From Glaucostegus cemiculus (taxonomy: Eukaryota): a DNA stretch of 64,000 nt. The position numbers and the translations under genes are program-made. Under the pieces are notes generated by a model. That model saw nothing but the letters and a program-made list of their open reading frames with translations, ran no database searches and was not told where the DNA came from. Positions 12,563 to 64,000 of this stretch are shown here, one piece after another (the stretch's first letter is position 1; each line of letters starts with the position of its first letter). Where the stretch lies: the NCBI GenBank assembly GCA_976551045.1, contig CDPCPM010000320.1:682001-746000 (forward strand), read 5' to 3'.

Positions 12563-12631
12563 TCAGAAGAGATTCTCTTCAAATATTGCCATTAAGTCGC
12601 TCTGAAAATTCATGTCAATCGTAGCCGCCAT
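12563..12631 (-). CDS. BRD4: BRD4 last coding exon, C-terminal motif MAATIDMNFQSDLMAIFEENLF*
   Basis: Acceptor gtgatttag, 22 codons plus TGA at 12563-12565. This is the diagnostic BRD4 P-TEFb-interacting C-terminus. Confidence 0.98.
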   Translation of the reverse strand: MAATIDMNFQSDLMAIFEENLF

Positions 12632-14011: not shown

Positions 14012-14099
14012 TGCTTCCTTCCGCCTTCGTTCTTGCTCCCGTTTCCTTGCTAGCTCTCGCTGCTGGTCCAGCATAGACTGCGAGGTTGGCTGAGAGCCC

Positions 14100-14155
<56 letters not shown>

Positions 14156-14234
14156 CTGCTGAAGATGTTGCTGCCTCCTCGCCTCCTCATGAGCTCTCCG
14201 AGCACACTCCAAAGCATCCTCCTCATCTCGACTT
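14012..14234 (-). CDS. BRD4: BRD4 penultimate exon: [20 protein letters not shown][27 protein letters not shown]
   Basis: Acceptor aattacag, donor GCA|gtaagt, 223 nt, phase 2-0. Confidence 0.96.
14099..14161 (-). repeat. Coding CAG/CAA repeat, polyQ21
   Basis: (CAG)4 CAA (CAG)3 (CAA)2 (CAG)7 (CAA)2 (CAG)2, read directly. Confidence 0.97.
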
Positions 14235-44443: not shown

Positions 44444-47400
44444 AACTGCCAATCACTACACAAGCTCTGTTTTTCTCTTGCATGCAATGCATATGAAAAC
44501 AGCTATTCCAACCAACCAATCCCTGTGACCCCAAAGTCAAAAGTAAAATACAGGTGTTTTAAAAGCAACAAAAAGTTCACCATTACAAAACATGCAAGTC
44601 AAAATAAATAAGATATACAATTGCATACAAAACAACAGTTTTGGAACAGTGAATTGTTTTATCACAATAAATTGGAATACAATGTCCAGTTTCTTTTTCC
44701 AAAAAAAATCACATCTGTTTTGGCTTACAAATTTTTAAAAAAAGTAAAAAAAAAGGAAAGTAGCCAACGAGTGCTAAAGTTTTGACTGAGGGGCCAGCTA
44801 TGCCAGGTCAGAGAGAAGTAAAGGTTTCTGTTCTGCTACTTGGATTCAAAGGATATTTAACAAAATAACAAATTTGGTACCCTATTTACAGGTTACTTCT
44901 GGCTAAATGAATCCCAACTCCCACAAATCTAAATTTTAAACAGAACTGCTATCCATTCTGAAACCTGCTCGAACTACAAAGGAGTGTAATAAGCCATTCC
45001 CAACCTGTGACCAATCTGGCTTGAAAGACTGGCAAATGTGGCACCAGTCATGATCTCACATCAATTTAGATCTAAAGGGATTTTTAAAACTAACAGCAAA
45101 TACACACCAATCTGGAGCTTTCCCAGAGACTGCACAGCATCAGTCTCAGAACACATCAATATAGATTAATAAAAAGATTGCAGCATCAATTACTACCTAA
45201 AAATTAGGATTTATTAGTTTCCAAATAGACAATTTCAATTAGTTAAAAATTAAAGCAACCACATAATTAACTTTACTGCAAGAAGTGCACATTAGACCTC
45301 CTCCCAAGACTCTTTAAGACAAACACCTAGCCCCACAGTCAAAAAACATCACCGATGTATAACAATAAAACTGACCACAACTTCACTGACTTTTCCCCGG
45401 CAGAAATAACAAAGATTGAAAACCTGCAGATTAAATCCTTTTGATTCACACACCATTTTTTTTTAAAAAGCAAGTCTCTCATCAGAGCACCAGTGTTTAA
45501 AATCATGCATGTCACACATGTACAAATTGAAATGCACTTTTTTAAAAAAATAAAAAGTTTAGGGATTTCAAAATATTGTCTGAAATATTTATGAGCTAAA
45601 ACAGTGGCTTCAAATTTACCAAAGTTTGAATGGCTCAAATAGCACCTGTCTTTAAAAGCTTCATAATCAGAAACACAATATTAACACACTGGATAATTCC
45701 TACAATGACAAACAAGTGAGATTGTAACGTCCAACGGTGAAAGTAATTACAGTAAATATTCAGGGAAATGGGGTTTAATGCAAGTGCAGTAGTCATTCCA
45801 TAAGGAAACAACTTGAAATGCTGTGAACAAGAATTCCAATAAATCAAAGGAAGATGCAAAGTAACATACAGTAATGCTGCAGATTACTCTACTCCTACAA
45901 GAATTCCACTGAAGGTTATTGATAGGCAAGACAGAATTTTTATATGCATGTTCTGTCAAGGGTGAACCTATTTATCCTTTCGTGTCAGTCACCAAGGGAA
46001 GCAGTGGTTGGGACAATTTGATACAATACGGATGATAATTGATGCAAGACACGTAATGGGTGATAACTCCTCAAATCACTTAATTGTCAATAAAGTCATT
46101 TGTTGTTCATCACTCTGCAACTTGTTGCCTATTATACATTCTTCCGCTTCAGAAAAATCAAAAGCTGATGGAAGCACCAACAATTGCTGGAGACAAATGC
46201 ACAAAGAAATCGTTACTGTGCAAAATTCATTCTCTGTTGGGGTTGTCACAAATTTCCATAAGGTGGGAGCTTATATGAGGAACAAAAAACCCAACTGCTC
46301 TCTGCTTCATCTTAATTATAAATCAAGCTGTTGAATTAAATCGTTCCTTCCTGTGGTTTTTTGACATAATTTATATTTTCATAAACTTTGTTGAAAAATC
46401 AACAGATAAATATACTGTAATGACACTTGGGACTACGCTAAGTAATTGCAATATGTTGGATACGAATTAAACCCTTTTATATTGTACATTTTGCTTCTGC
46501 TGCTCCAGTGTTCTGTTCCCAAGAATCCAGATAAATAACTCAACAATGGAGATATTTCATTTGTGACGCTTGTTAGGAGTACAAACAGTGGCAAGTGTGG
46601 AATATTTCCCAGTTTGGCTAACAAGACACAGTCAGCCATTTAGGTTGCAGATCTGATTACATCTCAATGCAATAGATACCTGCATAATATGATGTGTACA
46701 TGCATGACTGAAATCAGGCCCCAATGATTAGCAGTTGAAATCAAGCCTAGTGCAATACAAAGCCATAAAGTTCCAGGATTGAATATTAATCAGTGATGAA
46801 TTAGTTGATCTCAACCAAAATAACAGCTGGCATGTTATCACTATAATCATTTTAGAAGCGAGAACGTCTGGAGCACTTCTGCAACACCTGATAGAAAATG
46901 TATGAGCAATAGGCATACTGAATGTGAACAGAATCAAGCTGAGCTGCGCTGCTCCTAGCAATCAAATTATCTAACATCTACAATGGACACTCAGGAGTGC
47001 ATGTCCAGTCCACTCCTGATAACTAAATGCAAGCTTCAGCAACACATGAAATGAAAATTTAATTAAATCACTAAGAAAAATTAACAGCCTGTAGTTAGCT
47101 AAAGGTATTAAATATTATATCCATTGCCCAATAACTTAGAAATTTAAGTCACCAAAAAATCCATATTATTTATACCTGTCAAAGCTCAAGGCTTCACATG
47201 CATACACACATTGATGACAGACCATTCACAAAATTTCATACATCTTTCAAGAAACTTCAACCTCTTTTGGTTTAAATCAAGATTGCAATATCTCAAGAGG
47301 TTAGCCCTCTACAATTAGACTATTGGCCGTCTCACGAAACAGGTGGTGCAGTATTCACTGAGCCATGCTGTGCTTTTAAAAAACAGTTCCGAATACTTAG

Positions 47401-49465
47401 AAGTGTTATTTTATTAGGTGTATTTACTGAAGTCAATGAGCTAATTCCAAACGAAGCTTTTCGACTTCTCAATTCTAATGCATAGTTTACAATAACCTCA
47501 ACATCCAAACACACCTGTGACTCATCCTGATACAAGATCAAAACTTGTATTATAATCACAGCAGGAACCATGTAATATACAGCCGGCTGACCTCTCAGTT
47601 CCAAACTCTGCACTCTGTGGCTATTACACAATTCAATCTGTAGAAAAGTACAGCTTACAACTAAAAAAAAATCACTCATCTCAAAGATAGCATTTGGGTA
47701 AGAAATCACAGCATCCAAAGACCATACATACCGTAACACGCAAGATAATGAGTGCACATTACAAAAATAAAACTGTTGACAATTATCTGGGATATATTAA
47801 ATACACACACAGCAAGAGCCCCTTAAAATAGTTCTGTGACCGAATCTTGAATGACCAACTAGTGTACAAAATGAAATTTACCCACTGTAAACTGAAGATG
47901 CACATGTTAATTCAAAACCTATCATTCAGTTTTTCTCAGCAGAATACAATTAATGACACTTCAGTGGAACAAATATTTTGATTTCAATACATTTGGATTT
48001 TGGGGGTGGGAAGCAGAAGTACAGTCAGCTAAAGAACTCCCAAGGTCTAATTGGAAAAGTTGTAAAATTTGAAATAATCGACAAGACCACAAAGTAAGCA
48101 TCCAGAAATCTTGATGGTAATTTTCCACACTTCAAAATAAAATCTAGGATTCTGGTCCAGCACTGTGAACTATTTTTCTGCAGTCATTGGAAGAAAGAAT
48201 GCAGAACAGGGAAGAGTTAGAAGGCTTGGATGAAGGAATTTTGCCAATTGCAGCTGTCAAACGATTTGCAAATCAGAGAATTCTTGACTGTCATTCAGTC
48301 AACACTTATTTAGATAGAGCGTGCAAGATAACCGACATCACTGTGTATAATCGAATTTTAGTTCAAATGTTGAGCGATGACTTTGCTATGGGTAATGACA
48401 ATTATGAAGGTCCGACAGGGCCATTTATGCAGAACCGGTCTTTTCTGAAATGACAATTATGTGGAAACATCTAGGTAGTGAATTACAAGATCATTTATAA
48501 ACTATGACTGATTCAAGAGAAAATATACAAGCAGAGCTTGACACAGCTGGCTCTAAGATTAAAAGGGACAGCCTTGCAACTAACTAGCTGGGTACTTTTC
48601 TACAATAGTTAAAAAAAGGTACATAATTAAGTAGCTTACTTGCTTTAAATGCGAAATCTCACTGAGTCGACGGCCATGAAGGTGTAGTAGTAGTAGAACG
48701 CAGGATGTAGATAATTTTTTGCCAATTGTGACAGTCGAAAAGATAAAGATCTGCAGCCCACCAGGTTTTTTCTCCTCCTTTTGCTGTCCTCTTACTGTTT
48801 ATATAATCAAATTTAAAAAATGCACATGTACCTTACTGCGCAAGAGTCCACAGTGCACGAGGTGGGGGAGTATCTTGAACCTGTCCCATTCACCACAGAA
48901 CAGTGTTAGCACCAACCACCTGAAATGCTACACGAACTGCACACAGGTGAACACCATGTTTTGTAAAAGCATTCCATATGCATGTCCTGACCAGAAATCC
49001 TTCATAAATTTTTTTTTAGACAGGTGAAGCAAATTTCATTTGCTGGTAGTCAAACGTTGATCTTTCAAAAGACGAGGTAGAAAAAAAACAATCCTGTTTT
49101 TTCCAAGAGCAAAACAATTCTCTCTGTTGAAGCTGCTTTCTAATTTAAGTGCAACTTAAGCTCTTTTTATGGCTTTCAATGGTCACTGTCAGCATTATTG
49201 CACTTTTTCTATGCAGCTTAAACAGACTAGCGCTAGAAATTCTTCCAGACATGTTGTTCTTTTAACACAAGGAACTACTGGCAAAAGGCTCCAATTCCAT
49301 TAATCTGGCAAACTGTATGTATTGCAGTGATATTTAGAAGTCACTGGTTGTCGCTTGGAAACTACGATGGGTGGTTTACAGAGAGTACGTGGGGCAGAGG
49401 GGAAACAGACTTTTGCCAGCGCCAGGCTAGCAACAGGCTCAATTACTGAAAGAATTGACGCTAAC

Positions 49466-49588
49466 CTGTTTCAGAGTCGTTGCTCTCAGAGGAGCTGGAG
49501 TCACTGCTACTGTCTGACTCAGAAGAACTGCTGCTGCTTCTCATCCTTGAAGGGCCTCCCACATCCATGCTTACGTCATGCTTCTCAG
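49466..49588 (-). CDS. BRD4: BRD4 SEED (Ser/Glu/Asp-rich) exon: AEKHDVSMDVGGPSRMRSSSSSSESDSSSDSSSSESNDSET
   Basis: Acceptor ctttgtacag, donor ACAG|gttagc, 123 nt, phase 1-1. Matches human AEKVDV...SSSDSEDSET. Confidence 0.95.
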
Positions 49589-52500
49589 CTGTACAAAGAG
49601 AATTATCGTGTAAGTAAAAGGACTAAGTAATCTGCTCAACCATCAATACTGAAACTAATTGGCTTCACTAAGCTCTAAATTGTAATTTATCTTTGGGTTT
49701 TGTTGATTGTTATTAACCATGAACACTTAAGATGCTTACTTCACATCGCATATCATACATTAAGCGAGAGTCAAAATACTTGCAAGATCTATAAGTGTTA
49801 AAAACAATTATCAGGTTCCATACTTTAGGCAATTCATGACTCAGATAATTTGAAGATTAGGCCAAATTGAAGTTAAACTGCTTAACTTCTAAATATGAAG
49901 TAACTAGGTCAAACTCAATTTACTGTACATTTCATGTCAGAGCACCTTTGAGTGAATGCACTCATTTGGAACTGCTTCTTGCTGCAGAGCACTATGCAAA
50001 TCATTCTCCTTTCATGACATAAGCAAACTAAATACATTCTGTGCAAATGAAAGAATTAAACTAAAATGATTAACCTATGAGTTAATTCTGTTTTTTACTA
50101 ATTTAAGTGGACAGGGAATAACAAATAAAAAATAACAGATGTGTGACACAGTCTATCACTTATGAGCCTAAATGGCTTTTACACAAAAAGCAATCACGGG
50201 ATACACACAAACTAGAATTCAACAGAATTGGGCTCAGCTATTTTTCTCTTACCTTCCCAGCCCCTTTCAGAATAAGTAAAAATAAAAGGATAGCAAGAGA
50301 ATCTCTCAGGCTATTCGAAGTTAAGACCTTAGACAGAATATTTGTATTTACGTTAAAGTGATCAATTTAGGTAACAATTCAAATTCCTGGTGTATTGTGC
50401 CCCAAATATTCCTTCTTGCTTTTGAAGTTTTCCTCATGGACTAATGAGGATGAGTCTAAACACCGAAAATTTTAACTGGGAACAGGTAGTATTGAATTTT
50501 TTTTTCATCCTTTTAGTCAGAATGATTTCAGTAAGGTATGGGGTTCAAGACAACTCAAGTTGCGGGCCTTGATATCCAATCAGCTTGATGAGCATTTTTT
50601 CGGTACCCAAGTCTAAAAGAGCAGGCTGTTGAATCATCCCGAAGATCTTCACTCAATATGGTGATTAGCTTCTGTTTTGATGCAACCATATTGTTTGGAT
50701 GACTGCAAGCAGTTAGAAGTTCAATTTGTAATGTAATATCTTCCCATTTAATTTATTTTGCTTTTCATAGGTCTGAATTAAAATTCTCCTAACCACACAT
50801 GGTTCACAATAATTGATATTAGCAAGTTTCTCTCCCAGCCCCTTTAACAATTTCATACCATTGTCTAATAGAGTTCCTACGATGTTTTATTCACACCAGC
50901 TCAAAAGCTGCATCAGTGAAAATAATTTGGAATAATTTCCTGCTGTAAAATTATATAAATCAATCCCAATATTCAACAAGATCATGGCTGAACTTCTACC
51001 TCAAACACGATCTTGCTGCTTGACCCCAGACCCTTCAACTTCTCAAATATTCAAGCCACAAAACATTTGAAAGGTTAAGAAAGTTAATTTTGAGATGCTG
51101 TTCTGGAAACCAGTACAAAGTCGATACAGGGTAATGGGAATGTTTTGTAAGCTATAATAGAGGTAGCAGAATTTTAGATGAATACAAGTTTATTTCCAGT
51201 GACTGGGAAAAATCCAGAGATAACAAAAGCATGACAACATTTTAGTTGAAAGAATGTTGCAGTCAAAGAAAGTCAGAGGTGGAAGTAAGCAGTCACTGTG
51301 ATGGAGCAGAGGGGTGGTCAGGCTAAAAATATACTCAAATCTGGCTCAATAGACAGTTGCAATTGCCATATTAAGCAGCAACAGACAGGGGATGAAGTAT
51401 AAGGTAGGGACAAAAGATGAAGGCTTCAGCCTTCTTCAAAATATTTAGTTTTTGATCATTCATGCTTGCTCAACAATAGACAGTCAAGTATTTTGATAAA
51501 TGAAAGGTATCAAAGGGGTCTATAGTGATGATGGCAAAACAGAGCAGTGCCATTACAAAAATAAAAGCCTGTGTGAAAGAGAAATGAATAAGGAATTCAC
51601 ACAGCTGCAATAGGGTTATGTACATACCAAATACCTCTGGTTTATAAAAAATCACCATCTTAAGTTGGCTTTATTGTGATTTCCTGTAAATACTATCAGG
51701 TCAGGTTTTAATATAATTTGTAACAGTTTGTTTAGATGAATTCTTAACCAGTGAAATAAATTTCTTTCTTTCAGTCAGGAAATCAGTTGATTTCATTTTG
51801 AAGAATTTTCCTGGGTTACATGAATCTCCAAACTATTTAAGAATTTATTTTGTTTTCTGGGACTGGAATCAGGAGGTAAAATAAATAGGGCAGATTAAAT
51901 TACCTGGTAGATATAATTAGAAAAAGCTAAGTATTTTAAGTCCAATAGCATTTCTCAGTATCAATTGATAAATTACCAAAACCACTGATTTCATTTCTTG
52001 ACATGACAGGATTCAGAATTCCAATCATTATACCACTGCATGTACTCAGGCTGAAATAACTCAATAGTGGAACATGAAGAACATTTTCTCCACTCATTGA
52101 TTGCATTATCAGGCTACAAACTTAAAATGGAACAGGCCAGAAAGTGTTCTTCAATCTACAGTAACACAATGCAGTATGCAGAAACCACCATTAAATGTAA
52201 CAAAGCATAGGTTCAGTTATCAAGTTACAAACATTACAATGTTCATTAATAAAATACTGCGATATGGTAGTGCAGGCAATTCATGGGAGTTATAAATTTG
52301 TCCTTCAACCTAGATTAGCTACAAACGCTTTGCTGTCTTATAAGCAACTTCAGGCTGAGTTTATTAGCCAAGGTTCATTTCTCCTTCACAGGGATACAGA
52401 TTTTCTCTTACTGATGTATGGTAATTTATGTACAAGGCAAGGGAGCAATTGTTAATGGGCATTTACCTTTGTGTACTGTCCAGGCAGAGCACTAGGTTGT

Positions 52501-54399
52501 ATACTTGCTAAGGTATGACTCCAAAGCATGCAAAATGACAGCCTGAACATGCATATCACAATTATGCACCAGCATACTGCACCAAGGAGAGGTGCAAACC
52601 TCTTGTATTTCAGCTTTTACTGTGCTGTCTTGATAGTGAAAGGAACTATGCTTGTACTTTGTGATGAAATAACCCAGTGGGTATTCCAAAAACAACAGGA
52701 GAATCATTCCTGGTCACTCATAATTAGCACCCTGAAGAGATCTCAAAGCAACACAATGAGCAAACTCTTGCCCACTCTTGCCCATCTGAAGTAACACATT
52801 CAAATGACAAATACTCATGGTAAAACCCAAGGCTAGCTGTTATCAAAATCTGATTTTCTTTTTCAAGCTCAGTAACTGTACTCCTGCTCTTTAACTATAT
52901 ACCCTCAATCAAACACCACACATCACTCAAATACAGAAGGAGAACAATCTTAAACAATGAAAGTCAGTTGTCAGAGATCTGCAAATAGTTGTAGCTGTTG
53001 CCTCCCACAGTTTATAAGCTGGATTTATGCTAGTGGCCCAAAAGAGACAAGCCAAGTTAATGGTTAAATACAGCTAGTCCTGACTTAAAATACATGACAG
53101 ACTCATTTGACACAGAGGTGAAATGGACACTACCCCTACGGTGAGGTTCCTGTGTGATCAAGATAGAAGGTACTGAAAAATTCTGTATTTGCAAGGGACA
53201 GGAGATCAATGGAAAATGCCAGGTTGTGTGAAAATTTGGCATAAACTTCAATAGAGTACTTGACCTGTTTTTTGTCATGACAGCATAATAGAGTTAACAT
53301 GGATATTCAGTAATATGAATAGTGGTCTTGCAGATCCTCAGACTAGTTTGATTGATTTGAAGATATCAGAGAAGAATTTTCCAGATTACTTTCTAATACC
53401 ACAAGATTTTACCTTACCCATTGATCAGGAATGTTAATGTAAATGATATTCAAGTATACTGGCTCAAAGAATATGCTGGTCCTTTTTGTGAAGGCACAGT
53501 TGCAATGTACCTTGACTGATCACTGTCCTGTTTCCTCTTCCTATTTCATTTCCAAAATAAGCAGACATCGATTCTTAAAATCTTTGCTAATGATTTATTC
53601 CTTTGTGTTTACCTTGTCTGAGAAATTGCTTTAACAAATTTCCTATTTGGTCTCTAATTAATGAACTGTTTTTTTTTCCTGACCCCCATGCCAGTACAGT
53701 TTATATGAAGCACTTTTAATCAGCAGGCACTTGGAGACTCCAATTATGACAAAGTGTCTTTCCACTTGATGTTTCTTCATATAGCCCATAATCAGGCAGA
53801 GTCGCTACAGGGTAATAAAAATGGTATCCAGAAAAGCTACTACTACCACAAAAGATACCTTAAAACAGGGTAATCCATAAAAAGGTAATCAAAGAACAAG
53901 GAAGATTATAGTTTTGCACATCAAGTTGTTCCTTAAATAATTGACTTTTGAAAAGCATTTACATCATTCCATTCAAGGACAGAATGCCCAGGACTATTTT
54001 GCATCCTGCAAATTAAAAATGAAGTACTACTGAAGTATAACAGCTGTTTAAAATGTAGGCATACTCCAGTCTGATTCCACCCACAATCCCACATCATTTC
54101 CAAGCAGCCATTCTTTGTTTGAGCAACACACTTTTCAACACTGGCCACATTACAGCCAAGCCTCATTATTCAGTTTCGTGCTTCCGTAGGATTAACTGGG
54201 AAGTGATCTAGAGTACAAGACCCTTCTGACTCTTCTACCCCCACCCTCCAAAAGCAAAAATTAAAACCCACAGGGCCTTGGGAAAGAAAAGCCAATTGCA
54301 GCAATCTTATCACTCAGACTGATAAGTAGTTCAGCACAGACATGGAACTGAACCCAGAGGATTTTTTTTTATTGTTGCCAAGGCCACGATTTATAGTCT

Positions 54400-55900
54400 G
54401 TTCCAAAATACCCTTGAAAATGCTGCTATTTTGTATGTTTTTGGTGAAAGCTCCATTGTTGGGGATGAACTACCATGATCTACAATCAGAGATGGTGAAA
54501 CAATAGCAATACATTTGCAAATCAAGATGGTGCGCACAGAGGGAAAACTGGAGGTGCTGATGTTCCTGTGTGCCTAAAGCCCTCTTGTCTTCTTGGTGGC
54601 AGAGGTTGTGGGTTTGGGAAGAGCTACACTATAGTGGTCGAGATGAGAAATTGCAGTGCATTTTGTAGATGACACGCTCTGCAGCCACTAATCCAGGGAA
54701 GTGGAGAGAATTTCAAGGTCCTGACTTCTGCCTTACAGTAAGGGTGTCAGGAGGTGAGTCCTTCACCAGAAGTCCAGCATCTGAGCTGCCCTCGTAGCCA
54801 CAGTATTGATGTGGCTGGCTGTTAAGCTTCTGGTCAACAGTATGGCAGTGGTGATGGGGATTTGGCAATAGTAATACCCATTAAACATCAAGAATAGCTA
54901 TTCAGATCCTCCCTGTTGGACATGGTTATTGCCTGGAACTTTTACCCCCCGATACAAATATTACTTGCCACCATCAATCCATGCCTGAATATTGTCCTGA
55001 TCTTTTTTGCATTCAGGCCTGGACTGCTTCAATGAAGAACTGCAAATGGAACTGAAGATTGTGCCATCTTCAGCAAACATCTGACATTATAAAGAATGGT
55101 TGAACCTTGGACACTACTCTGAGAAACTCCTGCTCTGGGGCTAGAATGATTGACCTACAAAAACAACCACCTTCCTTACTGCAAGGTGGTTACCCTTGCT
55201 ACCTAATGACTTCACTTTGGCACCTTGATGCCACACTGAGTCAATCGTTACCTTTGTGTCACTTAACTTCAGGAATTCAGTTTTTTGGTGCATGTTTGGA
55301 CAAAGGTTATAATGAGGTTTGGAGTCACCCTAGTAAAACCCAAATTGGGCAGCAGTGAATAGGTTACTGGTGAGTAAGAGCCACTTGTTAGCATAATTGA
55401 TGACACCTTCAATCTTTTGATGATTGAGAGCAGACTGTATGGGCTGTTATACACAAGATTATATTTCTTTTAGTGAACAAATGATTAGCTGGATTAGTGC
55501 TGTAACTATATTAGAACAACTTTGCTCGAGGCACAGTTCTACAACTTTGATATCTGAACCCACAGCCTTTATGATAGCCAGACCTCTCAGTAGTTTCATG
55601 ATATCACATGAAGTGAATCAAATGGGTTGAACACTGGCTTCTACGATGGTGGAAGTTCAGTATGGAGATGAGATGGATCATCTGTTCAGTACCCCTTGCT
55701 GAATAATGGCAAAAGAGTCAGCCTTGTCTTCTGCACTAACTTGCTTGTCAAGGATGAGAATGTCTTTGGAGCCATTGCTCCCAAAAGCCTCATTTATTGT
55801 CCTCCATCATTCATGACTAGCTGTGGCTGGGTTTGGTTTGATCTGATCAGTGGGATGAGAGACTGCTTAGCTCTGTTTATTGCATGCTGTTTAGCTCTCT
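54400..55900 (-). mobile_element. Degenerate CR1-clade LINE, same family as 270-1190
   Basis: Reverse-strand similarity to 270-1190, e.g. ctcgtagccacagtattgatgtggctgg versus ccacataaatattgtggctgcaagag. Confidence 0.6.
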
Positions 55901-56714
55901 ATTTGCACCTTCAAATTGGAAGCTTACAGACAGTATTGAGAGACCTTGAAGTTTTAAATGAAAACCTGTATGATTAACATTAAAACTCATGGCTTTTTTT
56001 AGGGAGTAGATTTCTGGTCCACAACAATTTCAACTAAGTCAGCAATCAATGTACAATTCATTTCAGTGCCCTCATGATTAGTGGGAAGAGGAGCATCAGC
56101 AGCAGTGGAAAAATTCAGCAAGATTTAAACTCATTATTACATTCCTGTAAACAGAAGTAAATGATAAAAAAAAGACTACAATTGTTGTCTGTGCACTGGA
56201 TCCAAACATTTAAAATGTGTTAAAATATCTCAAATTCATCAATCCCAAAAGTGCTGCAAAATGAGTCAAAACCCAAATTATGCAACGTCTCATGCTCTTG
56301 ATTTAATTCCAAAATCACAAATTATACTCAATTTTGCAACAGTGCACGCTTCTGAATAAGCCTGTTTCCTAAAAAACTACTTGCCTGATCTTGAATTCTA
56401 CACAAAGTGATTCTGTATCACGTACCTTAAGTTATGTAAATTTGGCTTTAACCGTACATTCTCATCTAAAGAGATAAACTTCAACCTTCAAAAGTGAGCG
56501 TCTCTGTATAGCAGTGATAACTGGGAACAATGAGAACAGTCATGACTCTCAGTGGGTTGTTACCAGCCACTTGCATTGAGTGAAATGTCCAACCTTTTGG
56601 GAGATTGGAGTATGGGCCGGAAAAGTCTGGTGCTTCACCATTTAATGCAAGTTTAAATACATCAATATCAAGAGGCAAAAATCTAGCTTCTATCACAAAG
56701 ATTTCAAACACTGA

Positions 56715-57135
56715 CAAAGAACATAAGGTTAAACCATTTAATCCTTTATGCCTGCTCCCTAATTAATAAGATCATGGCTAATCTTTTACTTAGTTGCCAC
56801 TTTCCTGCACCAACCCCACTTCACTGATTTCCCTTAATATCTATTGGCTTCTGTCTTGAATAATCATAGCAACGGAGCCTCTCAAGCCCCTTGGGTAATG
56901 AATTCCAAAGATTTACCAAATTCTGTGAAGAAATTTCTTCCTATTTCAGTCTAGAACACTGAGTCTTATTTTGAGGCTGTGACCATGAAAACATAACCCT
57001 GGTAGCAACCTGTCAACCTCATTAGAATTTTTTGTGCTTCAATGAGATCACCTTTCATAGTATAGATCAAATCTGCTTAATCTCTACTAACAGAACAAAT
57101 TCTGCCCATCCAAGGAATTAATCTAGGGCACTGTT
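56715..57135 (-). mobile_element. Degenerate CR1 3' end
   Basis: aataagatcatggctaatc...gaattccaaagatttacc...gtgaagaaatttcttcctatttcagtct. Confidence 0.6.
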
Positions 57136-58130
57136 ATATAAATGAGTACAGACTTGCAGTATAAGGAAGCACTGTATAAAGTGCCAAATGCTTCAAATGT
57201 CCACGGCACCCAACGTTGGTTAAATAAAGGGTTGCACTGCCGCTAGTGTGCACATTATAGATACAATACTGTTTTGGCAAAGAGAAATAATGCACTGACC
57301 AATTTTTTTTCTGGTACAGGAGGGGAGGAGAGAAAATAGTATGTTTTATCAAATTGATGGCTGCCATGTGTGAAATCGGTGCTTTTGATATCCCCTTTAA
57401 TATTGAATCCACAAATCATTAGTTCTTGGGTCAATGTACAACATCGGAAGATACCCGTGAGAAAACGCAATGCTAACCCCATTGACCTGATCTGAAAATT
57501 TAAAGTCTATGCTTTCATTTTTTAACCAGTGCATCGCCTGTTTCCTGTTTTAAAGTTAAATATTTGTATACAAACAATTTTCCATTAGCAGAAAAGATTA
57601 AGGAATTGTTAGTTTCAGAGGCTACATTGACTCCCAAGAAATATTTTCTAGAAAAAAACATTAATTGCTTATTATAGGCAGAACACAGGACAAAGTAAAC
57701 ATCTCTATTTGCAGCAAAATTTCAGAAAATTACATCTTACCCTCTACCTACAATTGCAGTGTGAATGATTACCTGCAGTGCATATCCAGAATCGAACCCT
57801 GTTTCAATCCAATAAATCAAATACTAATGAGATTACCACCATACCTCTCAACTGTAAGGTTTTAAAAAATCACTGTGACCCAATATAAAGCTGTAACACT
57901 TGGAGAAATAGCAGCCAAATGCAACCAATGAAAATCAGCCAATTTACTAATGCTACCAAAAGCCGCACTCTTCTGCAAGCATGAACCAGAATTCTGCCAA
58001 TCACATTTCAGTTTGAGAGGTATGTGCACCACAAAATTAAAGCCATTACATATTTGTACAAATTAATTTTAACCTTGGCCCCAACCTATTTCACCTAAGG
58101 ATCTACTTCACAAGGTTGCACTACACCAAC

Positions 58131-58250
58131 CTTTTCTGCCTGGTTTCTTCCCAGAGCTCAGCTGGCCGCTAACGTCATGTAACCTGGTATCCAGCTCACT
58201 CTTCGAGTCTAGCTGGAGTTCATCGTTCGATTTCCCTGGGACTTTTTTCA
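58131..58250 (-). CDS. BRD4: BRD4 exon encoding a post-ET coiled-coil ([40 protein letters not shown])
   Basis: Acceptor ctgtttgcag, donor AAAG|gttggt, 120 nt, phase 1-1, open frame. The peptide resembles BRD3 [34 protein letters not shown] (recalled). Confidence 0.88.
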
Positions 58251-61200
58251 CTGCAAACAGCATCACACAACAAGATTTGGACCAAACACTTTGGTACCAT
58301 TACACAGGTACAACACAGTGAATAAAATTAATGTAATTTGGAACATGGGATCAGATGCAAATTGAAGTAAGGAATAGCAGCTAAAGGAAAAAAAAGGATC
58401 TATTCATTGTTTGCAACTTAAAAGGCCAATAATCTAAAAAGAGACTTTAGCAAATGCTTGGAAGCATGTAGTGAGGTCATGATAATTTTGCCTTAATAAA
58501 ACATTAAATCACATTTAAAAATTTGCCAAAGTGAAATAAATATAGGATTCAACTCATTGCTAAACATATTCCAACCTCAGTTGTGCTACTGTAAAGAGCT
58601 GCACAAAAATACAAGACAGAGAGAAGGGGAATAAGGGGAATGATCCCTGGTCACTGCTTACAAAGAGGTCAACTTCAGAAATTAATTGCAAAGAGCCCAA
58701 AGCTCAAAAATTGAGGAATAAAAAAATACTTTCCATTTAAAAAAAAGTTTGACCAAGTTAAATTTAAATTTTTAACTACTTTCACTCATATCAAAAGAGC
58801 AATGGTCAAACTGTTTGAAGGGATCCAAAACCAAAATCTAGCTGCCATGACAGGCAGAGAATTCTATGGCATCTGCAGTAGCAGGGTTAGCATGATGAGT
58901 TAGAATAATACTTTTTTCTGTCATCCCCATAAATATTCACCTATGCTTCCCCCACCACCCCCCACAGTAAAATTTAAACTTATGTATCATGACATCACTA
59001 CTGAAATTCACCATTTGCCAAATTCAAAATCAATTTCACTGGAGAAGTCAAATCTGGTTCAAAATTAAAAAGGAAATAGTGTACCTCTGAAAACCAGCTG
59101 TTGCTCTGACCTCTATATTAAGCAGCCCCAAAGATGTCAATACCCAACCTGTGCATGCCCATTCACAAGTCCAATGATGCTGTAACAGTGTAGATCATTT
59201 AACAATGATCATACATCCAAAGTAAAAAGATAATCATTGTAACAAAAAACTGAATATTACAATATCTTCCAATAACGAAGGCAGATATCACCCAGATTAG
59301 GGCCAAAGAACCCATTCACATAGAGCGCAATGAAAATCACATCATTTTACGAATAACTACACCAAAATTAACAATTTTTCACTGAGTCCTTACTGTAATC
59401 CATAGACAAATTGGTTATATTTCACTTGCAACTACTGATCAAGTTATTAATAAAATGCATTGAAGCAAATTATCTATTCTATTGTACAGCAAGTCCTTTT
59501 CCCCAACATCATACGTGAATCTTACAAATATAGTACCAATGGTCTTCATAAGAATACAATCACATCTTAGATGTGTGAGCAGAAGAACGTATTCCATCTT
59601 AACTGTTCATGGACTGATTTGGGGGAAAATGCTGTAACCTGGGATCTGGAACAAATTTAAACCTCATATGCGTACAGATGTTAGCTACCAAGAACATGCA
59701 AATTCAGATATCTGTCACACAATCTGAAGATCAAATCATTGGTACAGGAAGCACCAAATTACAAAGCAACTGGTTAAAGTTGCTCTACATTCCAGAAGCA
59801 TTTTTATGGACAGGACATTTTAATGTACTATGGAATGCTCCTGGCATTTGGAATATAGAAAATGAAACTGTCAAAAATCAGAACCAGCAAGTTTTCAAGG
59901 ACTGATGATGTAGAAAAATTTCCTGGAGTTCTACTACCTGTTATTTCAAACTTGAATTAAGCACAGTGGATAACGGTATAGGAGTACATAGTATGTTTTT
60001 TTTTAAACCAGGAGGTGGAAGAAGAAAATATTTTGCCATTTACTTTAAATTAAGCAATCTTAATTCCACAATCCTAAAGGTTTGGAGCGAATTTTAAGGA
60101 TAGTGGTCATGTATAAATTCTACCCTATCCCAATGAACAAAGCAATGATCAGCACACTAATACAGGAATGTCAAAGTCTGTCTTTGTATTTATGATTGGG
60201 GGTTGCCTGTTCCCATGTACATTTAATTAATTAGGAATGTACATCTGTCATGATTTACCTGGAGGATCACACTGTGGTTTTCTGGCTAAGAGTTGGCTAA
60301 AGTCAGTTCAACTGCACCAGAATTGAGTAAGGGTTGGTTTTGTGAAATATTTTCTCTCAGAAAAACAGTATTTCAATCTATTATATGAGAAACATGTTTT
60401 CCCATCCTGTCAAGACTCCTCAGGATCTTAGGTTTCAATAAACTTTCCTCTCACTTTTCTAAACTCTACCACATACAAGCAAAGCCCATTCAAACCTCAT
60501 TTTAGTTATTTGTCCTGAAATCTTCTGAACTCCTTCCAACAATATTAACATCCTTTTTTTTTATGAGTAAGATTAATGCCGTATAGTGCCACTCCACATG
60601 TGGTCTAACCAATGGCATCTGATCTCCCTAGCATTAACAGTGATGGCTTTCTCCATTACTGGAGTGTTTGCATACTAGCTTTTTGCAAATCATGCACTAG
60701 TTCACCCAGATGCCTCTGCATCTGAGGTCTCTCATAATATGCTTCTTTCCTATTTTCCCCTGACAGAAGCACAACTGAAGTCACTGCTGCGAGTTTTAAT
60801 CATACATAATGTAATCTCAGAACTATACAGGTCCTGGCAGCAAATCCCTCATTTCAAAGTCCTTAGCCTTGAGGTTCAATCTCCACCCACTTAGCCCAAC
60901 AAGGTCTCAAGACCCTCTATTCCCCCATTTCTGGCCTCTTGCACACTATTTTAATCACTTCATCACTGGTCACCTTGCCAACATGCTCTATAATTCTCCT
61001 CCTAAAACACTGTCCTGCAAATCTACTCCTTAGACCAAATTTCAGTCACTGTCATTGATATTGCCTGTGTCACCACCAAAAGGATACCAACATTGCTCTT
61101 AAGTGTCTTGGGACATTATGCAGCATTAAAAGGCATTTTTTGTGGTTTCTTGATCAGTTAATGGTGCAGTGACACAATGTGCTGGCAACATGGGTAAACT

Positions 61201-64000
61201 TGTAACAGCACCTGTCCCCACAATAGTGAAGCTCATTATATCATGGCATATAAGCATTACCAGTGACAATCTCCAAATAAAAAGGTCCAAGTTCAAGTAT
61301 TTGTTAATCATTTTGGTCAGAAGGGACAAGCAGAGAAAATTATACTTGGGTTCAATTAATTTTGTATGATGATATTATAAGATATCATGAGGCAAAATGA
61401 ATTTGTACTGTGTCAATTCCTTAAAGGCCAAAAACCCATCACAAAATTGCCCAAGTATAGCATTAATAATCTTAATGAATGCGTGGATAAGTTACTAAGG
61501 GCCCAAGAGCACTTGGATCGCCTCGTGGGTTCCCTGTGCATTCACTGGAGTTAGGGAACATTATATGTCTTCACTTTTGGGTATGCTGTGAGTTAGGATG
61601 GTTTGATATTGGCCCTGGGTTCCTAATACAAATAAGAGGCCCGTTTTTTCTGAACAAAGTTCAATTTGACAAGCACCAAGTGAAAAAGGTGAACAGTAGT
61701 TTAAAATGTGATGTCCAGAATATTTAAAAAGTAATCAAAAATAAAAACAAAATGAAATATGGTTTGCAAGACTGAAATTGGCTTCAATAAAGTTGATAGA
61801 TTTTATACTCACTTCAGTGATCTCAACAGGCTCAAAACAATTCTGGGCCAAAAACCTTTAGCATGTATTCAAACCTTTTGCAGAATTTGAGGTTCGCTGC
61901 ATATCAACAACATATTCCATAGTACAAAGTGACTGATGCTCCCTTTAGCTCAGCAAATTGTATCTTCCTGCAGAACTACTTTCTGCATCAAAGAGAAGTT
62001 TCTAACTCACTTTGTCAGCCATAATTTTTTTCCACTTTATGAAACATATGGAGCTTCAGATACCAGTAAAATACTGCAGCAAAACTCGTGATCTCAGAAG
62101 CCAAACACACCATAGCTTCATAAAAGTAACTCAACCACAGAACAGGTTGCAACTGTGAGGTCCATGGAAACTGGTGTCAAACTTTACATTTGCCACATTG
62201 CACAAAACTCAAATTCCATCTCGATTCCTGGTAATTGATACGTGTCACCAAACTTTTAAATTCATGAGGTTTTTCTAGATTCCCAAATGAATAATAAAGC
62301 ACCATTAGCACTTCTATCTAATAAGCAAGCATTAAAGTTAATTAACTGGTCCTACACTGAGCACAAGTCCTTTCCACTTAATCATCTCTTTTCACCTTGC
62401 ACATGAACTTCTATCCCTGCGAAATCCAAAAGGAATTGTTGGAAAACAACAGGCATGTTGACGATGATACTATCTATTAAACTGGTGAATTTTCCTAACA
62501 CAATTCTTAAGGGGTCTACTTCAGAAACATATTTAATTAGACCTTCAATGTGAAGCTTTGCAGTACTTTACTTTCAACCAAGATGAAAACTCTCACATGC
62601 ATTTTAACAAGAATTACACCAGTATCGTTCCTATCACTGGTAAGTTTTGAGATAAAACTTACACCAGCTATTCATAATTTTCCTGAACTGTTTTATTAAG
62701 GCAAAATCCCTGTCATCTCCAACACGGATTCTGAATTTCTGGTGATGAAATCCATAATAGCCTGAGGCTTAGCCAGAAGTAAAGTTGGTGTTTCTTTTCT
62801 TTCCATCTTCTAATACCCATCAAGATTACTATCACACATGCTAACATTTTCATTTTTATGAATTTCATTCTGATACTCCAACTCTAGCAGTCACATTCTC
62901 TTCCTGCACCTGTATCACTCCATATAGTGCAGCTATTCAAGAAGCCACCTTGATATTCCTCTCCCTCCTAATTTTCACCTTTGCCTCTGCCATTGACTCT
63001 TATTTAAAATAATGACCTTGGCTACAGGCTTTAATTAGCAGGAAGGATCACAGGGGATATGAGGAAAAATCCTCACCCAAAAATTACGGGGATCTGGAAT
63101 TTGCTGCCTGACAGGGGTGGGGAAGCAATAACCCTTGTTCCACTTAAAAAGGATGAACACCTGAACAGATTTAACCACAAGCAGCAGATAGAAATGAGTG
63201 GTAGTAACCTACTAAATAGCTTCATTTTTAAATTCAGATTATTCCCACATTCTACAGTTTTGACAATATGGCTTCACTGTCATCAACTTTAGGGATTTAT
63301 ATATTGCACCATTATTGATCATTTTAATAATAAACAATAATAAATAAACAAAAATAGTCCTTTAATCTATTATGTATGGTGTGCTGAGCCTCAGGACAAG
63401 CAGCCAAAATATCAGTTTACCATATATTTGCTGTGCTGTTTTAATTTCTCCCTAGACTTCAGTTTCTGGAGAGCAGAAAGGGGATGAGTGTGGGAAGCAA
63501 AACATCAAAAAAGTCAGATGCTGACTTGTCAACATTTTTTAAAAATTTTATGACACTAATCAAATTCTTGGCTACAATTCACTAGTCTGGCCGAACAGAA
63601 ATGAGGAAATATTAGTGTTAACAAAAATGCATTTATTTGCACTGAAATGTCAAGCTGACACTTGGGAGGGGAAAATATCACCCTGCATTCCTGTTTCTGC
63701 TTACTATCAAAGCCAACTGCTGGAAAAATGTGATCATAAGATCATAAAAGAAAAAAGGCATTTCTGCAACACCCCACAGCTCATCAGCAAAGACTCACTG
63801 ATTCCTCATCAAGGAAGAATGGTCATTCTGGCACAACATGATGCCTCAAAAGTTGAGGGGAAATAAAGGAATGGAGAATTTAAAAGTTACAATATACATG
63901 TAGTCTCGTTTCCTACACTTCATATTAAATAGTAAATTAAAGGTGATCTCATTAGGAATGGAGTATTAATTTTTTTGGAATAAAGGGAAACTGCCCTAAT

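Follow-up and report, generated by a model that had tools for sequence, protein, structure and literature searches.

An ancestral exon coding for the coiled coil (CC) that follows the ET domain of BET proteins is present and partly included in BRD4 of the ray Glaucostegus cemiculus, while it is absent from the sampled bony-vertebrate BRD4 proteins. The exon lies at 58250 to 58131 on the minus strand of the window, a 64,000-nt stretch of DNA that corresponds to positions 682001-746000 of contig C320. It is 120 nt long, has phase 1-1 and codes for a drifted copy of the post-ET CC helix. This post-ET coiled coil of BRD2, BRD3 and BRDT was reportedly described as the 'ETCC' module by Werner et al. 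in 2020. BRD4 is described as being without it (PMC11939847). Available excerpts of PMC11335234 and PMC13083254 mention the CC, those of PMC13373324, PMC9454494, PMC5261807 and PMC8391731 contain nothing on this exon, and a full-text literature search, with most subscription journals outside it, returned no report of the CC in a cartilaginous-fish BRD4. Public shark and ray gene models may already contain the exon.

Position and borders of the exon

The CC exon is bordered by an acceptor reading TTTGCAG and a donor reading AAG/GTTGGT. Its 5' splice site, GTTGGT, occupies 58125..58130 (minus strand) and is covered by reads joining the CC exon to the SEED exon, while its 3' splice site, with a pyrimidine tract interrupted by G, occupies 58251..58272 (minus strand) and is marked by loose-end reads running from the ET exon into the CC exon. 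Its reading frame continues that of the upstream ET exon and runs on into the downstream SEED exon. The ET exon ends 577 nt past the window, at contig position 746577 or window-equivalent 64577, and the intron between it and the CC exon measures 6,326 nt in total, of which 58251..64000 (minus strand) lies in the window. The intron between the CC and SEED exons measures 8,542 nt (49589..58130, minus strand) and appears in RNA as a joint skipping 8542 nt with CT..AC ends. The SEED exon itself spans 49588 to 49466 on the minus strand, and its acceptor takes the CC exon or, on skipping, the ET exon.

Exon shape alone is weak evidence, since 60 comparable pseudo-exons (stop-free, frame-preserving, YAG..GTR, 60–240 nt) occupy the same 14,868 nt of flanking introns. 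The exon is taken as real because homologous exons occupy the same position in the paralogues and because spliced reads cross both junctions. In a search of the genome the exon peptide was 61, 54 and 49% identical to three paralogue exons, and it resembled (E 5e-5) PDB entry 6CUI, labelled BRD2, which contains a BRD2 chain including the CC. Pfam contained no family covering the CC. Translation of 58250-58131 on the minus strand returned the peptide of the preliminary description, and the clean 120-nt AG/GT exon in frame with SEED proposed there is upheld by sequence, homology and RNA, with the minus strand now added.

Identity of the gene

The gene encodes two bromodomains and an ET domain (PF17035, E 1e-29), and gecko and newt BRD4 align to it exon for exon over its whole coding length. 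A tree of 31 rows and 288 columns was built from the bromodomain and ET blocks, with six rows having less than half of the columns filled. The ray gene was placed as sister to seven bony-vertebrate BRD4 proteins; the BRD4 clade had support of 95/85 with one change and was recovered in 94% of bootstrap trees, and the bony group had support of 98/96. BRD4 and BRDT were grouped weakly (71/76), with the partial BRDT row of this genome outside that group.

The C-terminal (P-TEFb-binding) motif of the long isoform is encoded by two exons on the minus strand. The penultimate coding exon, at 14012..14234 with its end inferred from translation, contains the first half (PF17105, E 1e-9) and also a long glutamine run. 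The last coding exon, at 12563..12631, contains the second half (PF17105, E 6.8e-12) and is 90–95% identical to gecko and newt BRD4, compared to 67% for the paralogue on contig C56. Across the 1.26 Mb BRD4 contig no match was found to the Notch NOD domain expected of NOTCH3, another conserved BRD4 neighbour. Three AKAP95-domain matches were located 80–170 kb upstream of BRD4 on the same contig, and akap8l is named among neighbours in an excerpt of PMC9454494. The tree and the PF17105 motif identify the gene as a cartilaginous-fish BRD4, in agreement with the original assignment, which the AKAP95-domain neighbours would fit as well.

The other BET loci were assigned by similarity and C-terminal motif as BRD2 (C196), BRD3 (C52) and BRDT (C56). 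Position 13 of the BRD2 CC is M in this genome, as in all listed ray and skate records, and L in the listed shark records, which most likely makes it a batoid genome. One further AKAP95-domain match, with two internal stops, was observed at C56:8005529-8005675, 1.4 Mb from BRDT; it may be ZNF326 read across an intron.

Ancestry of the exon and contrast with bony vertebrates

Searching the genome with the peptide identified four CC places, one per BET paralogue. The exon has phase 1-1 in all four; its length is 120 nt, except for 129 nt in BRD3. A CC after ET was also found in hagfish, spiders, horseshoe crab, ticks, mosquitoes and a nemertean, often together with the C-terminal motif. On the basis of these comparisons the CC exon is ancestral to all four jawed-vertebrate BET paralogues, and the claim of an ancestral coil stands on both the homologous phase 1-1 exons and the invertebrate proteins. 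That ray BRD4 keeps coil and long tail together is likewise correct; the combination is not special to it, however, as CC and C-terminal motif occur together in BRDT of this genome, in marsupial and rat BRDT and in invertebrate BET proteins. The symmetry of the exon, from which a regulated switch had been suggested, was confirmed, but being common to all four paralogues it is an inherited feature that gives no indication of a switch.

The ray exon could instead have been copied from a paralogue such as BRDT after BRD4 had lost it, a late gain that we consider highly improbable. It is closest to BRDT (59% of residues, 87% of first codon positions), but BRD4 and BRDT tend to group in the tree anyway, if weakly. 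Third-position identity to the paralogues is 28–36%, position and phase are ancestral, and the neighbouring SEED exon also retains the old GGPSR motif, as in BRD3 and invertebrate BET proteins. No second or decayed CC copy was detected within the 184-kb BRD4 region.

None of the 28 bony-vertebrate BRD4 records in which ET continues into SEED, gar included, had the CC, as the preliminary description had proposed. These records represent 11 named species (four mammals, three lizards, a newt, two teleosts and gar) and four unnamed records, and include 7 newt and 5 clingfish isoforms; records ending in intron read-through or lacking the ET end were excluded as uninformative. The contrast draws on protein annotations, from which minor exons can be missing, with introns outside the comparison, and the sample is without BRD4 of coelacanth, lungfish, bichir, sturgeon, an informative bird, shark or chimaera. 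As a partial control, the CC was nearly invariant in 18/18 shark and ray BRD2 records (15 of the 60 in the main cluster were listed). By parsimony over this limited sample, the CC exon would have been lost on the bony-vertebrate stem. The proposed later loss therefore holds as far as absence from every record is concerned, while its date rests on annotated proteins only. One dolphin BRD4 model carries an unrelated 22-residue insert after ET, and two newt BRD4 models leave out an exon that codes for 43 residues of the second bromodomain. KKVP in the ET end of gar was considered as a CC remnant and is most likely ordinary drift.

Homologue searches yielded no further cartilaginous-fish BRD4, returning only unlabelled single-exon ET reading frames. 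A search of 50% representatives gave 22 matches with no cartilaginous-fish BRD4 among them; those bearing the CC were of the consensus type, and two were unrelated repeats. None of 12 single-exon reading frames of ray BRD4 had an exact match in the protein collection. The atlas gave no usable match, and a metagenome scan gave one, apparently by chance.

Inclusion and skipping in RNA

Three raw RNA runs with the same species label (X1-X3) were mapped on 46001-60000, with 18–24% of each run read; these and one contig of a fourth run make up the RNA sample, among six listed runs. The CC-to-SEED joint 49588-58131 was crossed by 10, 12 and 9 reads in the three raw runs, and loose ends at the CC acceptor carried the end of the ET exon in 9, 10 and 7 reads. 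Skipping was counted from loose ends at the SEED acceptor that matched the ET exon end (15, 5 and 25 reads, agreement 0.92–0.99), among which a few short-overhang inclusion reads may be present. Inclusion at the SEED acceptor was accordingly 10/25, 12/17 and 9/34 per run (26–71%), or 31/76 when pooled (41%, Wilson interval 30–52%), with the remaining 45 reads skipping the CC. Both inclusion junctions and the skip junction were observed in 3/3 raw runs, and the contig from the fourth run spans SEED, CC and the ET end. The CC exon is an optional cassette in ray BRD4, roughly 40% included. The in-frame ET-SEED junction seen in RNA is the mammalian-type junction that skipping had been predicted to give, and the count of junction reads proposed alongside that prediction is hereby supplied. 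A retrocopy as the source of the skip reads is not supported, as only four ET loci were found, counts of this kind being lower bounds.

The RNA reads differ from the assembly at one position inside the CC exon (58219), where the difference is synonymous and occurs in all four runs. About 20 further differences, carried by most or all of the reads, lie in the UTR region within 47789-49411; a divergent population or a closely related species may be the source of the runs.

Inclusion varied between runs (chi-square p 0.010), which would fit a regulated switch in which tissue or state sets inclusion and the form with the CC still binds BRD2-type partners (TFIID, PAF complex), with one gene yielding BRD2/3-like and BRD4-like proteins. 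The reads were not de-duplicated, however, the 12 inclusion reads of X2 derive from about 6 start positions and the tissues are unlabelled. We regard such a switch as possible but unlikely.

Splice sites and a probable short isoform

The last 20 nt ahead of the AG in the CC acceptor contain 7 G, and no pyrimidine run there exceeds 3, which makes it the extreme of the 17 BRD4 acceptors located. Its pyrimidine count, 12/20, is low but not the lowest of the 17. The donor has 6/9 matches to the U1 consensus, equal to the ET donor, which counts against splice-site weakness on the donor side. Compared to the introns of 6.3 and 8.5 kb in BRD4, the CC exon of BRDT is flanked by introns of 96 and 87 nt, and that of BRD2 by introns of 1,248 and about 980 nt. 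Partial recognition of the exon probably stems from the G-broken acceptor, set between two long introns. Splicing-factor motifs in the flanks were near background except for TGTG (5 upstream vs 1.8 expected), an excess too small to rely on, and the want of a motif clearly above background speaks against regulated inclusion.

A transcript that reads through the SEED donor reaches a stop immediately. Sense-strand read depth covered 47402-49269 in X1 and X3 and was absent in X2; there was none in 46935-47401, and the neighbouring intron was mostly empty. The depth and an AATAAA at 47415-47410 mark 47410..49465 (minus strand) as the probable 3' UTR of a short isoform, which suggests that a short form of BRD4 ends just after SEED. 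If this ending and the CC exon co-occurred on one RNA, the product would have the layout of BRD2/3. The signs of a short isoform count in favour of the regulated switch, as does the statement, in an excerpt of a review (PMC8446420), that the CC together with ET confers BRD2-like activity on short BRD4. On the other side, no read joins the CC exon to the short 3' end. The letters G/GTTAG end the SEED exon in BRD4 (49460-49466), in BRDT (C56) and in BRD2 (C196). In BRD2 they form a true stop, and BRD2 looks like a fixed short isoform with the old donor letters.

State of the peptide

The ray peptide was compared to 49 distinct intact CC segments, picked by a pattern requiring L19, L23 and L30; this set omits degenerate copies, namely those of aphids, beetles, lamprey and reedfish BRDT. 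The hydrophobic 4-3-4 core (L19, L23, V26, L30) and DVSGQL are all retained. In contrast, N8, D14, S15, D20, T21 and H24 occur in 0/49 intact segments and S17 in 1/49, and the charged consensus is departed from by E14D, K15S, E20D, K21T and Q24H, each 0/49. The comparison thus agrees with the initial impression that hydrophobic residues were kept and charged ones had drifted. In our heptad assignment the substitutions fall on outer positions. Basic residues number 3 in the ray BRD4 CC compared to 6–7. Retention of the core counts in favour of the regulated switch, while it is countered by the substitution of E14, K15, E20 and Q24, which are conserved in 44–48 of the 49 intact copies.

The profile score of the ray segment, 31 bits, is below that of all 49 intact segments (lowest 37, median 90), and its helix penalty of 8.8 exceeds that of all 49 (6.5 +/- 0.4). 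A structure model guided by 18 intact relatives, and for that reason weak evidence, has a helix at 8-30 with a pLDDT of about 80 there and a mean of 70. The 40-residue insert has retained its hydrophobic face and on this ground would most likely still form an amphipathic helix. Two new S-x-x-D/E sites (S15, S17), the pattern recognized by casein kinase 2, are created by the drift beside one common to the paralogues.

The rate of protein change was evaluated from residues at which the other three paralogues agree. Changes confined to BRD4 affected 9/39 CC residues vs 2/74 ET residues (Fisher p 0.001), and the other paralogues differed at 4, 2 and 0 CC residues in the same comparison. Against their pooled CC:ET ratio (6:7), the acceleration in BRD4 was not significant (p 0.10). 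On the BRD4 branch 5/45 non-synonymous sites had changed vs 5/7 third positions (p 0.002), in a test that draws on 7 third positions and mixes old and recent history; between paralogues, synonymous sites were saturated. This small branch test points to purifying selection that would still act on the exon, and the synonymous nature of the single read difference at 58219 is a further sign of constraint. Neutral evolution was also simulated with substitutions only (4000 runs), scoring runs that kept an intact frame, AG/GT ends and at least 59% identity, and such runs made up 34%, 12%, 1.8% and 0% at 0.1, 0.2, 0.3 and 0.5 changes per site. Prolonged neutrality of the exon is unlikely, and recent neutral decay is compatible with the simulation.

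A dying exon is the corresponding explanation, in which function was lost fairly recently, the sequence drifts neutrally, and inclusion persists only because the splice sites are still intact and the insert is harmless in a disordered region. The lowest profile score, the highest helix penalty, the weak acceptor and the degenerate CC of reedfish BRDT and lamprey BET proteins all fit such an exon. Conversely, three of the changes are E to D, the four core residues and DVSGQL are intact, there is no indel relative to the CC of BRD2 or BRDT, third positions have diverged much more than non-synonymous sites, and inclusion stands at about 40%, not at a trace. We consider a dying exon improbable. 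The ray CC is probably a weakened or re-tuned form of the BRD2/3 ET-CC module on which selection is relaxed rather than absent. Drift of the CC was also seen in aphids and beetles, as well as in the reedfish and lamprey proteins, and helix decay has consequently happened more than once.

Discussion

The results are, in our judgement, best and rather probably explained by a weakened but still constrained cassette exon that resembles the state before loss in bony-vertebrate BRD4. The ancestral BET gene carried ET, CC and SEED on three consecutive exons together with an optional long tail, and the four jawed-vertebrate paralogues inherited the phase 1-1 CC exon, which is an optional cassette in ray BRD4. 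The G-broken acceptor between the long introns probably leads to partial recognition of the exon, with the skip form having the junction of the bony-vertebrate type. The outer face of the CC has lost basic and helix-favouring residues, probably leaving a helix that is weakened or re-tuned. The final step, complete loss of the CC, would then have been taken by bony vertebrates in BRD4, and it would cost little because skipping is frame-neutral and already common.

In a general model, exons are lost via a frame-preserving, alternatively skipped stage. The symmetric exon, weak acceptor, partial inclusion, faster protein change and absence from the sister lineage all match this model, although the ray case represents one species at one time point and the order of events is inferred. 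Relative to the CC of BRD2, BRD3 and BRDT, the ray copy has the same position between ET and SEED, the same exon phase, the same 4-3-4 hydrophobic spacing and DVSGQL; it differs in lying in BRD4, in being skipped in about 60% of junction reads and in having six residues absent from the 49 intact copies. Compared to bony-vertebrate BRD4 the gene is orthologous, its skip form shares the ET-to-SEED junction, and it likely has a short form after SEED, like the gecko records ending ETG. With long BET proteins of the BRDT and fs(1)h type (Lineus, Limulus, ticks, mosquitoes) it shares CC and C-terminal motif in one protein, but there the CC is mostly near consensus, unlike the drifted CC of ray BRD4.

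The CC is the element reported to separate BRD2/3 function from that of BRD4, and with its partly included exon ray BRD4 shows a halfway state in how the work was divided among sister BET proteins. A partly included CC in ray BRD4 places the loss after the cartilaginous/bony split and not at the genome duplications from which the paralogues arose. Tail and CC coexist in invertebrate BET proteins, in BRDT and in ray BRD4, which suggests an ancestral tail and a late loss of the CC. This bears on the hypothesis, put forward in the Discussion of bioRxiv 10.1101/2025.09.20.676678, of a BRD4 that first acquired the P-TEFb tail and later gave up its role in initiation; the preprint also maps TFIID binding to the CC-holding C terminus of BRD2. 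Ray BRD4 provides a natural isoform pair and a natural six-residue mutant set for mapping the helix face that binds TFIID or PAF.

More speculatively, and with a rather low probability in our view, ray BRD4 may be a BET protein switched by splicing at two independent points, namely inclusion of the CC and length of the tail. If so, the short form with the CC would be the natural counterpart of the engineered chimera of short BRD4 plus CC and would be BRD2/3-like in initiation, while the long form without the CC would correspond to the bony-vertebrate elongation factor. Splicing in a single gene would, on this view, already have separated the tasks of BRD2/3 and BRD4 before exon loss fixed the division.
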